20,003 nt of DNA from a virus (taxonomy: Duplodnaviria > Heunggongvirae > Uroviricota > Caudoviricetes): the IMG/VR virus record IMGVR_UViG_2563366959_000003; one strand, written 5' to 3'. Position 1 is the first letter of the stretch. Each line of letters opens with the position of its first letter. Position numbers: made by a program. Shown one piece after another: positions 6,001 through 18,000 of the stretch.

Positions 6001-9000
6001 AAGACATTAACCCATCTGGCTGGCGGACGCTGGGCTGAGTTCCATACGGCAAGGCGGGGATTTATCCGGCTGGGAAAACGACTGGGCTTTGAGCGAATGC
6101 CGGATGATGAGGATGGCTTCATGGTGTTCAGGATAGCGGTCTGACTGCTACAGTTTTCATCATTGTGTTTAAACCAACATTGTAATTCACATTCTGACCC
6201 TGCTCCGGCAGGGTTTTTTGTTATCCAGGGGGCCATTATGGGTGGAAGTAAAGGCGGTGGTGATACCAAAGTAAAACCAACAGCAGCGCAAATAGCACAG
6301 GAAGAAGTGGCCTGGAAAGGGTGGCAGGATTACAAAAATATCCTCCGCCCGGCTGAAGATAACTTCATGGAAAAGGTCGATGACCTGAACAGTGAGCAGC
6401 AGTACGACAATATTGCTGGCACCACAAATCTGGGGTATCAGAAACAGTTTGGCGAAGCACGGAAGGAGCTTGCGGGTAATCTTGCTCAGTCCGGCGTTGA
6501 CCCATCCAGTGGTCGTTTTAATGCGGTAATGAATGCGAACCAGAGTGACCAGGTAACCGGGCAGATTGACACAACCACACGGGGGCAGGTATCGCAGGCA
6601 GATAAGTATGTTGCCGGGCTACAGGATGTTGCTGCTCTCGGTTCTGGTCAGAAGGCGGATGCGTTACAGAGTTTTAACTCTCTGGCAGACAGCAGTCTGG
6701 CAAAAGCTAAATCGGATGCACAGGCGGCGTTTACGAAACAGCAGGGGCGAGCCTCTCTTGTTGGCGCTGGTCTGGGTGCGGCAGGTGCATATGCGATGCA
6801 TAAGGCTGGCGGTAGCGGAGGAAGTGGCGGTGCTAAAACACCTGGCACCGGCGCTAATGCCATTCAGCATCAGGCTCAGAACTGGAGACTGTAATTATGG
6901 AGTATGGCAAATACGAAACTCTCGCAAGGGCTGGTTATTCAGGAGCAGACCGCCCACAGGGTGACTGGCAGACGTCAGCAGCGCTGACACGCCAACAATA
7001 CGACGACTGGCGAACCAGATATTTGCCCCGCGTGGCAAGGCTGGCTGACCTTGGGGAGAACAACAGTCTGATGAATGCACAGCTTGCACGGGTGGGAGGC
7101 CTTGCCACTTCCAGTCTCCGTACAGCGCAGATGGCGCAGGATAACCAGATGGCGAGATACGGGGTAAACCGCCCGGATAATCCCGACAGTAATACGCTGG
7201 GGTTACGTAATGCCCTGGCAATTGCTGGCGCGAAAAATGGTATCCGTGAAGCCGAACAGGATCGCCAGATGAATATTCTGACGGGGGCTTCTGCACCGGC
7301 AAGACAGAAACTGAGTGTTGGCGGCCAACTGGTGGCAGCGTAAGGGGGCAATATGGGATACGGTTTACTGGATATTGCAAATCAGTCGCGGCGTGAGGCA
7401 TTACAGGGAATAAGTGACGCAGACAGACGACGTGAAGAAATTGAGGCTGCGAACAAACAGATGGCGGCGCAACAGAAAGCGCAGAACAAGCAGAATATCG
7501 GTACGGGCATTGGTACGGGGGCGGCTATTGGCGCATCCGTTGGTGGTCCTGTTGGTGCTGTTGCTGGAGCAGTAATTGGCGGCATTGCTGGTTCTTTGTT
7601 TTAAGGAGTGGTGAATGAGCGGATTTGCACAGGGGTTACTTGCCGGATTCAGCACCGTTGACCAGGCAATGACCCGTCGTAAGGAGCTTGGTCTGCGTGA
7701 AGCACAGCTTGCCCGGCAACAGAAAAATAACGAGCGCGATTTTGAGTTTGCGCAGTCTCAGTTTGAACATAATAAAAACGTTGATCAGCGGAACTTTGAT
7801 TACAGAGCCAAAGTTGACGACCGTAATTATGCACTGAAGGAAAGGGAGTTTAACGCTAACCAGAATTACCGGAATGCGTCACTGGGTATGGAGCAGCAGC
7901 GACTCCAGTTGCAGAAATACAACCAGCGACGGCTTGAGTATAACGATATGATTGCCCATAGCCAGCCACTAATGGAAGCGCTTGGAAAAGCAATTGAGGC
8001 TGGCGATCAGGAGGCTGCAACGCGTCTGTTCGGGCAGCTGCCAAAGGGACATCCATTAATTCTTATGTCAAACGAAGGCTATGCAGCGAAAGCGGGTCAG
8101 GCCGTGATCAACCTGCAAAAAATCTTTGGTGATAAGCCGGACATGGCGATCGATTCGCTGAATACCCCGGAAAATCTCGATGTGCTTTCCGGCGTGTTTG
8201 CCCCGGAACTACAACAGCGTATTGGCATGCCTGATTCAACCGGGGACAAAACGATAAAAGAGGCCAGGATTGGCAGTATCGTACCAGCGCAGCAGGAAGG
8301 GTACGTACTTATTGGCCTTGATCTCACATACAGCGATGGCTCCACCGCGCATAAACCTGTAACAGAATACGGCAGTGCGCACCCTGATGATCAAACCGTG
8401 CTGGCGATACCCGTTGATAAGGCTATCGCTCAGGTCAGGGATCGCAGCAAATTTGCAGAGATATCGAAAAATTATGGTTATTTTATGCCGAAGCAGCAGG
8501 GACTTTCTCTGAAAGAGCTTCAGAAGGGGGCCAGCAACGTAGCGGCGGACGCGATCAAGAATGGCGGTAATGCTCAGGCTGCGGTGGATGAATATTATGC
8601 TGCGACTGGTTCACAACCGCATCAACAGAAAATTCAGCAACAAAAACTTCAGCAACAGGTTATCAACTGGGCGGGAGATGATCCTGATAAGCTGTCATTT
8701 GCCAGAAATGTAGCGGCCCGTCAGCCTGAAATGCTGGAACCTCAGAATCAGAAATTGCTGGAGAACGGGTATGCGAATTTTCTCCGTATTCAAAAGGCCA
8801 GGGGGGAACAGGCCAGAGATGAAAGTGCTTCATCTGCATCTCAGTTTATCCGTGGACTGAAACAGAATTACGCCCAGTAATTCACGATATTCCATTAATA
8901 CCATTTCCTGATGCCCGGCCATTGTGCCGGGTTTTTTTATGGAGTCTGTATGGCCTATTCAGAGGAACAGCGTCCTGAGGCGCAACTCGGTAACCAGAAT

Positions 9001-15000: not shown

Positions 15001-18000
15001 TATGACCGTCTGGCAGGGATTATTGACGATATGCTGGCCCGTCGCCGTGAGCTTATCCGTGAGGCCGGACTTGAAGAGAACGGTGTGGTGGATGCCTGGC
15101 AGAACGCCTACCGTTACTACGTTCCCCTGAAAGGTCAGGATGTTGACGGTGTGGTGTCACTGCCCCGTACAGGTAAGGGCTTCACCATCGGCGGACGTGA
15201 AAGCAGGCAGGCCATGGGGCGTGCATCCCGGGCACAGTCTCCGTCCACTCAGGCGATACAGGACCTGAGCGAATCGCTGATCCGCCATCGCAAAAACGAA
15301 GTGGGTAACGCCTTCCTGAAACTGGTGCAGGATAATCCCGACAAGGATTACTGGCAGGTATTCACCGATGACAGACCGGATACCATGCGGACGATTGCAG
15401 AGCGCAAGGACCAGGAAACTGGTGAAACCATTCGCGAAGTTGTCGAACGCCCTGTACCGATGGCAATGATGGCAGACCGGTACTTCACCACCAAAAAGAA
15501 CGGCAAAACGTACTACATCAAACTCCATGATCCGCGCCTGATGCGTGCGATGAAGAGTATGGGACCGGAAACCAGCAATGCCTTTGTTCGTACGCTGGGG
15601 AAAGTTAACCGCTTCCTGGCAACGGTGAACACGTCGTATAACCCGGAATTTCTGGTCAGTAACTTCATCCGTGACGTGCAGACGGCGGTGATGAACCTGA
15701 AGGCGGAGCAGGGAAGGAGCGACGGTAAACTGAAAGGGCTGGATAACTTATCCGCCCTGGCTGTGGTGAAAGACAGCCGTTCTGCCATGTCAGCCGTATA
15801 CGCCAGTCTGCGTGGTATAACCCTCACGGGAAAAGGTGCACAGTGGCAGAAGGTGTGGAAAGAGTTTGTTGAGGGCGGAGGGAAAACCGGCTGGTTTAAC
15901 ATGGGTGACCTTGAAGGCCAGCAGAAGGAAATGGATCGCCTTGTCTCACTGGCGAAGGGGGGATGGAAAGGCCAGAGTATCGGTGCATGGAATTCGTTCC
16001 TTAACCTTGTCGAGGATGCCAACGGTGCGGTTGAAAACGCTCTGCGTCTTTCTGCCTATAAGCACGCCCGTGATGCCGGTTTGTCACGCCAGCAGGCGGC
16101 GTCTCTTGCCAAAAACATGACGGTGAACTTTAACCGTCGTGGTGAGCAGGGAGCGCTGATGAACTCGCTGTACATGTTCGCCAACGCCAGCATTCAGGGG
16201 ACCGCAAACCTGGTGAGAACGCTCGGACATCTTAATGGCGACGGGCCGTTACTGGAGCGCCTTCGCTGGAAGAATCTCAATGTACCGCAGAAAATCGCGC
16301 TTGCAGCTGTGGGAGCGGGTTATCTGCTTGGCTCGCTTAACCGCAGTGTTGCGGGGGAGGATGATGACGGGGTTAACTGGTATGACAAGGTGCCGTCTCA
16401 TGTGAAAGAGCGTAACCTCGTCATTATGAAATCGGTGTTCGGGGGCAAGGCCGGAGAGTACTGGAGTATTCCTCTGCCTTACGGGTACAACGTTTTCTTC
16501 CTGCTCGGGCATACTGCTGAAGGTGTGGCGGCGGGTGACCTGACGGCGTCCCGTGCTGCCGGTAATGTTGTTGGTGGTGTGCTTGGTGCATTCAGCCCGA
16601 TTGGCAGTGAGACGTCGGAAACACTGTCCGGGGCATTGCTGAAAAATGCAGCGCCGACCATTCTGCGTCCGTTTGCGAACCTTGCCATGAATGAAAACTT
16701 CATGGGGGCGCAGATTTACCAGGAGAACATGCCGTTTGGTACACCAAAACCTGACAGCCAGCTGGGAAGACGTTCAACGCCAGAAGCGTACAAGGCGTTT
16801 GCATCCTGGCTGAATGCGTTCTCTGGTGGCAGCCAGTACCGTCCCGGCGCGGTGGATATCACACCGGAATCGCTGAAATACTGGGTGGACTATATCTCCG
16901 GAGGGACAGGGCGCTTCATTTCCAAAACCACGGATGCGGCGGTGAAATCGCTGAATGGTATTGATATACCGGAGCAGCAGGTGCCCTTCCTGGGGAAAAT
17001 TTCAGGTGAGGTGATGCCGTATGCAGACCAGCAGAAGATGTACGACCGGATGACAGAGATTGCGCAGTATCACGCAGAGCTGAAGAGTCTGACCGGTGCA
17101 GAAAGAACGGCGTTCATTGACGAGAACAACGGAAAATTGTCGATGAACGGGCTTATGCAGGATACCCGGAAGAGACTGAAGGATTTGCGTAAACAGCGTG
17201 ATGCCATTTACGCCGACAGTACTCTCAGTCTGGCGCAACAGTCGGCGATGGTGAAATCGGTAGAGCGGGATATGAAAATTGCCGTGGATCGGTTTAACCG
17301 CGAGTACAACAAAAAAGTGGGAGTGGATTAACAGAAATGGCCCCGTACGGAAGTGCGGGGCTGATTAAGAAATAAACACTCATTGACCTGTAATAACCGG
17401 AGCTATTAACATATAGTCAGAAGAGCATTTCATGTGATACAGAGAGCCGATTTATGTTTAATGAAGAAAAAGTTGCGCAAATGGCAGCGTATTTGCTGAA
17501 AAAGCATGGCGGATCTATGCGTTTCATTAAGCTGAAGCAGCAACGGTAATGGCGAATAGCATTTATGAGCAAAATAATCTTGATATGTTATTAGGCGATC
17601 TGATGTAACCGGGATGATGTTCACCCCTTATCGCCGGGGAACAATACCGGCAATCAGAATTGCGGATGGAACTATTCAGGCCCACGATGATATCGATGAG
17701 GAGTTTTTTCAGCCAGTATTGGATGGCTTTCTTATATCCAAATATACGCCATTTGACATCCTCCACGCCCTGAAGGACGGGGTTTTACAGCGCACCGGAT
17801 AAGATTCGGTGTTTTGTTGAAAAATACTGTGATAACAAACAGAAAACCCGTCAGTAAGACGGGCTTAGCAAGCTGGGACGGTTACTTTAATAATTTCAGT
17901 GCCTTTACATCCACTTCAACACTGCTCAGGTCTTTATCAATTTCACCCTCAATTCTTACTTTGTCTTTCGGAGAAACATTCTGACCGGCCCATATGCTGT

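Follow-up and report, generated by a model that had tools for sequence, protein, structure and literature searches.

The window analyzed in this work, i.e., the whole stretch of 20,003 nucleotides (nt) of the Caudoviricetes record IMGVR_UViG_2563366959_000003 from IMG/VR, contains a block of five co-directional genes, designated here A, B, C, D, and the giant gene, the nature of which is the subject of this study. Between positions 5700 and 17400 the sequence is 99.7% identical to Sp5, a prophage of Escherichia coli O157:H7 Sakai, and to phage VT2-Sakai, and the window comes from a short-tailed Shiga toxin (Stx) phage of the 933W/Sp5/phi24B type (Traversvirus, Sepvirinae), where it makes up the late region's right end. 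At least 90% identity to the block was found in 186 phage records and in 427 of 5,426 complete E. coli genomes, and its proteins share 96.6–100% identity with their counterparts in phage phi24B. It should be stressed that the identity, essentiality, virion association, and polyvalent class of the giant protein, as well as the finding that D is essential and the mutant phenotype of A, have already been published. What is added here is incremental: the synteny of six genes in phages of five host genera, a split of the giant protein into conserved (chassis) and lineage-specific (payload) parts, a re-reading of the phi24B proteome, and a hairpin that recurs just before the giant gene.

The open reading frame (ORF) map exactly matched the preliminary description of the window, prepared from the sequence alone: genes A–D and the giant gene are real, they are separated by 2, 9, 10, and 69 nt, respectively, and each start is preceded by a Shine-Dalgarno (SD) sequence (GGGGG for A, GGAG for B, AAGGGGG for C, AAGGAG for D, and GGAG, 5 nt upstream of the ATG at 8950, for the giant gene). 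The other ATG of the giant gene, at 8911, chosen in some annotations, has no SD sequence and precedes a hairpin. The five genes, which that description had presented as a module, do constitute one conserved functional block, but a sixth gene, ORF75, also belongs to it (Table 1).

Table 1. Features of the late-region right end of the Stx phage, in coordinates of the window.
Feature	Position (nt)	Strand	Residues (giant protein)	Remarks
Nozzle gene (phi24B gp57)	604–2307
Central needle gene (phi24B gp56)	2304–3572
gp55 and gp54 (phi24B names)	3587–4488
lom	4579–5313			Ail/Lom family
ORF75 (ECs1237)	5743–6144	+		133 aa; sixth gene conserved in the block; directly 5' of A
Terminator-like hairpin	6196–6221 (stem-loop 6196–6215)	+		8-bp stem and T-run; between ORF75 and A
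Gene A (ECs1238, Sp5 ORF76, phi24B gp51)	6238–6894	+		218 aa; virion protein
Gene B (ECs1239, Sp5 ORF77, phi24B gp50)	6897–7343	+		148 aa; small virion protein
Gene C (ECs1240, Sp5 ORF78)	7353–7604	+		83 aa; glycine-zipper membrane-type protein
Gene D (ECs1241, Sp5 ORF79, phi24B gp48)	7615–8880	+		421 aa; virion protein; essential
Terminator-like hairpin	8913–8939 (stem-loop 8913–8932)	+		7-bp GC stem and T7; in the gap between D and the giant gene
Giant gene (ECs1242, Sp5 ORF80, phi24B gp47)	8950–17331	+		2,793 aa; polyvalent protein
Conserved N-terminal region	9397–10269	+	~150–440
Glycine zipper in N-terminal region	10162–10224	+	405–425
Lineage-specific part (putative payload)	12100–14466	+
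LPD5	12100–12549	+	1051–1200	Pfam
HExxH motif 1	12799–12813	+	1284
LPD1	13030–13269	+	1361–1440	Pfam
HExxH motif 2	13600–13614	+	1551
MuF_C/PBECR RNase-like domain	14197–14466	+	1750–1839	Pfam
Conserved C-terminal module	14590–17328	+	1881–2793
Hydrophobic helix in C-terminal module	16294–16350	+	2449–2467
LPD38	16375–16992	+	2476–2681	Pfam
GC-rich stem-loop	17339–17362	+		9–10 bp; GGAA loop; no T-run; 8 nt past the giant stop codon; read from sequence

Homologs of the block were searched for with tblastn among 50,697 phage records, using A, D, and the C-terminus of the giant protein as queries. Outside the Stx phages, relatives were found in Aeromonas phage phiARM81mr, about 100 Vibrio phages, GP4-like phages of Ralstonia, Bcep22-like phages of Burkholderia, and Bacillus phage Dartukuta. 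In the Aeromonas and Vibrio phages, homologs of all six genes (22–50% identity) follow the tail genes directly and in the same order. GP4 and BcepMigl carry a reduced form, in which the giant gene is preceded by an A homolog and by a gene whose product (BcepMigl gp17, GP4 AXG67764) occupies the position of D and shares with it the N-terminal motif GFAQGLxAG. Moreover, scanning of IMG/VR with an alignment of the A family, followed by profile searches of the ORFs, yielded 80 loci. The full ORF75-A-B-C-D-giant set was present in 74 of them, with no violation of the gene order. ORF75 was located upstream of A in all 80 loci, and the position of the giant gene in the late region, after the nozzle and needle genes and A–D, was the same as in the window in 74. 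Three of the six remaining loci are cut by a contig end, and three resemble decayed prophages. In the latter (L061, L067, and L069, all prophage-derived), the giant gene is missing after D, C was undetected, or D is replaced by other ORFs, which looks like decay rather than natural systems consisting of A–D only.

The interval between the nozzle gene and ORF75 is about 3.4 kb long in the window, where it includes lom, and about 1.2–4 kb in loci distant from the Stx phages; in the two annotated relatives, phiARM81mr and Vibrio phage D87, it holds tail-fibre and small hypothetical genes only, and no lom. The lom gene and its neighbors are best read as insertions of the Stx lineage between the needle gene and the block, and the block as core. 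The lom gene is trailed by its own terminator-like hairpin (5337–5355, plus strand), with a further hairpin at 5718–5695 on the minus strand, and it is this gene that shows the behavior of a true moron here.

The hairpins at 6196 and 17339 had been described as bracketing the module. Both of them exist; the second one has no T-run, received no call in the terminator scan, and is present also in Sp5 and phi24B. Of 45 closely related IMG/VR loci, 32 carry the first one in identical form, and phi24B has no identical copy of it. A third terminator-like hairpin, as strong as that at 6196 and absent from the preliminary description, lies inside the block at 8913, where it adjoins the SD sequence of the giant gene on its 5' side. 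The two outer hairpins therefore do not delimit a transcription unit, and their role as operon boundaries was rejected. Terminator-like sites are in general mildly enriched within positions 3500–18500 (24 versus 15.4 ± 4.0 in shuffled sequences). A hairpin with a T-run precedes the start of the giant gene in each of the 42 close loci in which both D and the giant gene were located, and GC-rich hairpin/T-run elements of unrelated sequence occupy the same place in about half of the divergent lineages (L057–L060, L059/L063, L064, L075–L088). The pre-giant hairpin could dampen or adjust the level at which the giant gene is expressed in comparison with A, B, and D.

Within the giant protein, four Pfam domains scored over their cut-offs, i.e., LPD5 (E = 6.5e-45), LPD1 (9.7e-24), MuF_C (1.3e-17), and LPD38 (1.7e-48). 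Iyer, Burroughs, Anand, de Souza, and Aravind defined in 2017 both the LPD domains and the notion of polyvalent proteins delivered by virions (PMC5512222); in the same work MuF_C is an RNase-like domain of the PBECR type and not a peptidase, and LPD38 is restricted to phage-type polyvalent proteins. The giant protein carries several of these catalogued domains in one polypeptide, as polyvalent proteins do, and its LPD38 region matches a PHROG annotated as 'DarB-like antirestriction'. Its two HExxH motifs gave no match to the Pfam family MPTase-PolyVal at E ≤ 0.1.

Comparison of the orthologs revealed that only two parts of the giant protein, aa ~150–440 and aa ~1881–2793, are common to them, and that the middle varies by lineage. 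The profile of the N-terminal region (GN) was found at the N-terminus of the giant protein in 75 of the 80 loci, and the giant of Vibrio phage D87 shows 28.5% identity to this region at the same position. The C-terminal ~900 residues are orthologous to those of the giants of JC1, BcepMigl, and GP4. The middle part contains a methyltransferase and ddrB-ParB in Aeromonas, SLT and LPD3 in GP4, SLT, Eco57I methylase, helicase_C, and PBECR1 in BcepMigl, and ddrB-ParB, pyrophosphatase, LPD5, LPD1, LPD23, ART, and GNAT in Dartukuta; no recognizable domain was found in that of Vibrio. In GP4 and BcepMigl, the SLT lytic transglycosylase opens the protein at its N-terminus. The LPD5-HEWFH-LPD1 block of the Stx giant is shared with Dartukuta (37% identity, motif kept) and was not found in the Vibrio, Aeromonas, GP4, and BcepMigl orthologs, and the LAHEW(F/W)H motif is conserved only alongside this block.

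In phiARM81mr (L003, 18555–30113), the reading frame of the giant gene is open from just past D, about 1.8 kb before the annotated start at 20541, and the unannotated stretch includes the conserved N-terminal region and the glycine zipper. The GenBank version of this giant (3,190 aa) is probably truncated N-terminally by about 580 residues, and the 1.8 kb that seem to separate D from the giant gene in this phage are an annotation artifact. Stand-alone LPD38 proteins of about 900–1,000 aa were considered as a separate gene for the C-terminal module and discarded, as P0155 lies within the remnant of a rearranged prophage, whereas P0229 is interrupted by a contig end.

ORF75 has homologs in Aeromonas phage phiARM81mr (p64, 41% identity) and Vibrio phage D87 (gene 15). 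It was considered as a degenerate GNAT, matching the acetyltransferase that GP4/Bcep22-like phages carry at this position, but the idea was dropped (hhalign probability of 0.06%; no Pfam match). The A protein, whose C-terminal segment is rich in Gly and Ala, matches phrog_8003 ('virion structural protein') and is homologous to virion-associated proteins of Bcep22-like phages (BcepMigl gp19, with gp64 as the JC1 counterpart) and to a GP4 protein. Homologs of B occur in Aeromonas and Vibrio phages, and C is also kept there. According to the preliminary description, none of the four small proteins carries a recognizable motif. This does not hold for C, which possesses a C-terminal hydrophobic glycine-zipper segment (aa 50–82), although the match to Pfam Gly-zipper_YMGG (25.7 bits) is just below the cut-off. 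Residues 57–75 of C (Kyte-Doolittle 1.69) form the sole transmembrane-grade hydrophobic segment in the block. The RefSeq label of C as a 'bacteriocin' was rejected as a composition artifact, all of its Gly-zipper and Bacteriocin_IIc matches being under the Pfam cut-offs.

The AlphaFold2 model of D (predicted local distance difference test score of 84) comprises a helix of about 126 residues, which would be ~190 Å long if straight, a small alpha/beta domain, and C-terminal helices. The D family is small (66 representative clusters in an exhaustive representative search of 1.84 billion proteins), and the searches with D and with its Aeromonas homolog returned near-identical E. coli and Aeromonas sequences, with no distant relatives among the matches listed. 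The phi24B record describes D as 'similar to putative transcription initiation factor and seryl tRNA synthetase', a label that looks misleading.

The genetic data come from marker-free in-frame deletions made across those Sp5 genes whose function was unknown (Mondal et al. 2016, PMC5155283). Mutants deleted in ORF79 (D) or ORF80 (the giant gene) formed neither plaques nor lysogens on E. coli K-12 and were complemented in trans; their particles had normal-looking heads and contained DNase-resistant packaged DNA at the wild-type level (PMC5155283). Deletion of ORF76 (A) left only residual infectivity, with infection and lysogenization strongly reduced (PMC5155283). Thus, D and the giant protein are needed for infectivity and not for head assembly or packaging, and A shows this only in part. 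Expression of the giant gene rises on induction, lom being uncoupled from it (Riley et al. 2012, PMC3342100).

The virion of phi24B has a T=9 capsid and a tail built of the portal, two adaptor rings, nozzle, needle, and six fibres (bioRxiv 10.64898/2026.04.10.717836). None of the five block proteins is present in the tail or capsid models, and gp47 (the giant protein), abundant in mass spectrometry (MS) and invisible in cryo-EM and negative stain, was proposed by the authors to be an encapsidated ejection protein (10.64898/2026.04.10.717836). The supplement of the same preprint lists 10,962 peptide-spectrum matches (PSMs) for the giant protein, 1,634 for D, 523 for A, 129 for B, and 13 for C. 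The giant protein ranks second by PSMs, mainly at the gel top, D has its maximum in a single slice (EA1815), beside the peak of the 45-kDa major capsid protein, as fits a 47-kDa protein, and in the whole-virion digest D exceeds the portal (10.64898/2026.04.10.717836). The peptides of the giant protein fall mostly in the first four gel slices listed (EA1805–EA1809), which were taken as the gel top; if this is correct, the giant would be mainly unprocessed in virions. The available first of 40 parts of the proteome table has no peptide row for ORF75.

Whole-virion PSMs, normalized by protein length and scaled to 12 copies of the portal, gave estimates of about 23 copies per virion for the giant protein, 37 for D, 32 for A, 48 for B, and 6 for C, their accuracy lying within a factor of 1–3 by the preprint authors' own rating of spectral counts. 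The same arithmetic returned 31 copies of gp84 (about 31 according to the authors) and, for the nozzle and the adaptor gp64, of which a virion has 6 and 12 copies, values of 6.2 and 10.7, respectively. In the preprint, D ('transcription factor') and C ('bacteriocin') were set aside as contaminants on the basis of old annotations (10.64898/2026.04.10.717836). Given the Sp5 deletion genetics, it is very unlikely that D is a contaminant, and the re-reading of the proteome favors the view that A, B, C, and D truly belong to the virion, in which they lie, like the giant, outside the resolved shell and tail. Similarly, gp64, gp68, and the giant gp69 of Burkholderia phage JC1, which are homologs or positional equivalents of the block proteins, were found to be virion-associated by MS, and the homologs in phiARM81mr are annotated as virion structural proteins. 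The accessible part of a 2025 proteomic study of enterohemorrhagic E. coli phages (PMC12502783) deals only with major head proteins, with tail fibre proteins, and with those labeled 'virion structural', and is uninformative on A–D.

We propose, with a probability of roughly 60%, that in short-tailed T=9 Stx phages ORF75-A-B-C-D-giant is a cassette for internal-virion (ejection) proteins. This reading is favored because the proteins are virion-borne and off the resolved tail, and because D and the giant protein are needed for infectivity and not for packaging. It is also favored because the set combines one membrane-type protein, one long helical protein, and a giant with conserved termini and a variable enzymatic middle. 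The clustering of co-directional late genes, the largest adjoining smaller ones, is as found for ejection cassettes, and C is, by sequence prediction, the small membrane-inserting member. According to this proposal, the block genes would be transcribed late, along with the other morphogenetic genes, and A, B, C, D, and the giant protein would be loaded into the head in roughly tens of copies each, outside the portal-adaptor-nozzle-needle-fibre tail. Upon release of the needle at the cell surface, they would exit by way of the tail, before the DNA or together with it, and build or extend a conduit across the envelope. C might constitute the membrane-inserting part, jointly with two Gly-rich ends, that of A and that of the giant protein's N-terminal region, and D, with its ~190 Å helix, might be a long spacer or a component of the tunnel. 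The two conserved regions of the giant protein, N- and C-terminal, would serve as an essential chassis, while its variable middle (LPD5, HExxH, LPD1, and PBECR-type MuF_C) may be a payload delivered into the new host and acting early against host defenses or RNA, as the polyvalent-protein hypothesis presumes.

The closest worked-out analog is the gp73-gp72-gp71 set of the N4-like phage DEV (gp52-gp51-gp50, the last being the virion RNA polymerase, in N4), and the likeness fits in the way of working, not as homology. In both cases, a single late cluster of co-directional genes encodes a one-helix membrane protein, a largely helical protein of ~420–520 aa, and a giant of ~3,000 aa; in DEV, a small one-transmembrane-helix pore protein, a helical protein of ~520 aa, and a giant of 3,398 aa are encoded in one operon (PMC11445570). 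The DEV giant was likewise seen by MS and not by cryo-EM, and its C-terminal domain, which binds the tunnel protein, is the most conserved one (PMC11445570). Both the DEV/N4 and the Stx giants have an enzymatic 'extra' function in the middle and a conserved C-terminal domain, and phi24B and the N4-like Schitoviridae appear alike in their T=9 capsid, as far as the accessible part of the source goes. In contrast to N4 and DEV, the Stx giant has no RNA polymerase domain, no sequence or fold homology is detectable, the small genes come first and the giant last, and A, B, and ORF75 are additional. Channel formation has been shown for DEV gp72/gp73 and is presumed for the Stx block.

The gp14-gp15-gp16 proteins of T7 and gp7-gp20-gp16 of P22 resemble the Stx block in being required for infectivity, dispensable for packaging, and encoded in a late cluster with the largest protein last. 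However, the Stx block comprises five or six proteins instead of three, its giant is 2–4 times larger than T7 gp16, no homology was detected, and the Stx deletion particles are reportedly without tail fibres. The large ejection protein of T7, gp16, features an SLT lytic transglycosylase, and the giants of the GP4/Bcep22-like phages begin with SLT as well, unlike the Stx giant. Among polyvalent proteins (PMC5512222; Bcep22/JC1 gp69, GP4), the Stx giant shares LPD5, LPD1, MuF_C/PBECR, LPD38, the virion-gene setting, and packaging, but it has neither the methylase/helicase (DarB-like) nor the SLT domains of its JC1/BcepMigl/GP4 relatives. Moreover, the concept of polyvalent proteins as 'accessory weaponry' does not predict the essentiality of the Sp5 giant.

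Several observations weigh against the ejection proposal. No sequence or fold relation to the T7, P22, and N4 ejection proteins was found; phmmer searches of PDB and profile searches with the giant protein, its middle, the alignment of its C-terminal part, D, and the A family returned nothing meaningful; and the model of D retrieved from BFVD its own family alone and no named ejection protein. The Stx giant gave no SLT/lysozyme match and has no peptidoglycan hydrolase recognizable with Pfam, and a transmembrane-grade segment occurs solely in C. ORF75, ORF77 (B), and ORF78 (C) were each deleted and are not among the defective mutants, i.e., they are dispensable in K-12 (PMC5155283). In addition, the copy numbers carry the latitude given above, and the intracapsid location, ejection, channel formation, roles of particular proteins, and function of the payload are what we infer from the data at hand. 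Mutants of the P22 type that lack ejection proteins alone retain their tails. The Sp5 ORF79 and ORF80 particles, in turn, were not bound by an antibody against the tail fibre ORF67 (data not shown by the authors), and the authors' verdict was a role in tail assembly (PMC5155283).

This verdict leads to the first alternative, in which D and the giant protein, and perhaps A, would be required for the short tail to be constructed or finished at the portal vertex, for example as an assembly scaffold, a plug, or a flexible internal component. The DNA-filled normal heads devoid of antibody binding (Mondal 2016) and the location of both genes directly downstream of the tail genes are in line with it. 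Nevertheless, the tail of phi24B is wholly explained by six other proteins in cryo-EM and the abundant giant remains unseen, whereas a short tail cannot hide ~23 copies of a 300-kDa protein; the antibody result, besides being unshown, is also expected if the portal needs internal core proteins to accept the tail. We therefore regard a tail-building role as rather unlikely.

An even less probable alternative is Dar-like antirestriction, in which the giant protein would be an injected anti-defense effector and A–D its capsid-loading accessories, as in phage P1. The preliminary description had noted an echo of the P1 dar operons, and to some extent this stands, as the giant is of the polyvalent class that includes DarB-like proteins and all block proteins are packaged in virions. 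The P1 Dar set (DarB, DarA, Hdf, DdrA, DdrB, and Ulx) likewise consists of a giant and nearby small proteins that are found in capsids and presumably enter with the DNA. The LPD38 match to the 'DarB-like antirestriction' PHROG and the domains of the orthologs (Eco57I-type methylase and helicase C in Burkholderia, methyltransferase and ddrB-ParB in Aeromonas) point in the same direction. The Dar domains and accessories themselves were not found, however: by Pfam, neither a methyltransferase nor a helicase domain is present in the Stx giant (Eco57I methylase with helicase_C occurs only in the BcepMigl ortholog), and A–D match no DarA, Hdf, or Ddr family in Pfam or PHROG. Furthermore, conservation across lineages resides in the non-enzymatic N- and C-terminal modules and not in effector domains. 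Dar proteins act against type I restriction and are dispensable for growth and plaque formation, whereas deletions of Sp5 ORF79 or ORF80 abolish plaques and lysogens even on K-12, which is restriction-proficient but permissive. It should be added that an anti-defense role of the middle payload of the giant is compatible with the ejection proposal too.

Finally, the cargo reading of the preliminary description, i.e., an oversized moron serving the lysogen, is hardly credible: the location near lom and the prophage end and the recovery of clones CM7 and CM13 (giant gene) and CM19 (ORF75) in a lysogen-culture screen (PMC3342100) are outweighed by the induction-dependent expression of the giant gene, unlike that of lom, by the essentiality of D and the giant protein and the crippled infectivity upon loss of A, by the presence of the proteins in virions, and by the retention of the block, always after tail genes in every related phage examined, in phages without lom there, including seawater and oyster isolates. 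That description had itself named homologs that are ordinary structural proteins, or an internal-virion gene cassette, as evidence against its proposal; the homologs found are of this kind, and by that criterion the cargo reading is refuted. The block is no new kind of system, and it is neither a moron nor a Dar operon.

A bolder version of the ejection proposal, which we put forward only tentatively, is that the block represents a modular effector-delivery ejectosome, with A, C, D, and the ends of the giant protein as the essential chassis and its central ~1,400 residues as an exchangeable payload. If so, the fold of the ejectosome chassis would have no solved relative, and the payload sets would be LPD5-HExxH-LPD1-PBECR in the Stx phages and methylase/ParB, SLT/helicase, or ART/pyrophosphatase elsewhere. 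The pre-giant hairpin would then set the stoichiometry of the giant protein versus D, A, and B.

Several further observations concern the neighborhood of the block and its relatives. Shortly downstream of the giant gene, on the plus strand, there is a 31-codon ORF (17454–17549; MFNEEKVAQMAAYLLKKHGGSMRFIKLKQQR), followed by apparently non-coding sequence; it resembles what is left of a longer gene at its 5' end. On the minus strand, a gene of a BOF/YgiW-family OB-fold protein (17882–18226) and a hok/sok-type type I toxin-antitoxin locus (18346–18670) were identified; the latter contains an Rfam sok match (113.5 bits, 18496–18670) and a MokC/HokC-like ORF (18346–18558) and corresponds to hokW-sokW of Sp5 (PMC8621323). 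The structural modules of relatives harbor insertions of a selfish or accessory kind: Vibrio phage D87 carries an HNH endonuclease gene on the opposite strand between its C and D homologs (L004, 19224–20015), and a retron-type reverse transcriptase is encoded among the tail genes of phiARM81mr (L003, 8223–9509).

The danger posed by E. coli O157:H7 and O104:H4 stems from toxin genes that are spread by short-tailed Stx phages, and the cassette takes up about one sixth of the genome (11 kb). The ejection proposal would reconcile the Sp5 genetics with the phi24B proteomic and structural data, and would correct the annotations of D ('transcription factor') and C ('bacteriocin') that stood behind their dismissal as contaminants. 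It would also provide a parts list for the passage of DNA across the envelope after binding to BamA, and the chassis-plus-payload layout of the giant protein would allow DNA delivery to be separated from any anti-defense activity. If the more tentative, modular version were true, the payload would act in the cytoplasm during the first minutes of infection and would co-decide which E. coli strains can be converted by an Stx phage, which would have a bearing on the emergence of new Shiga-toxigenic lineages.

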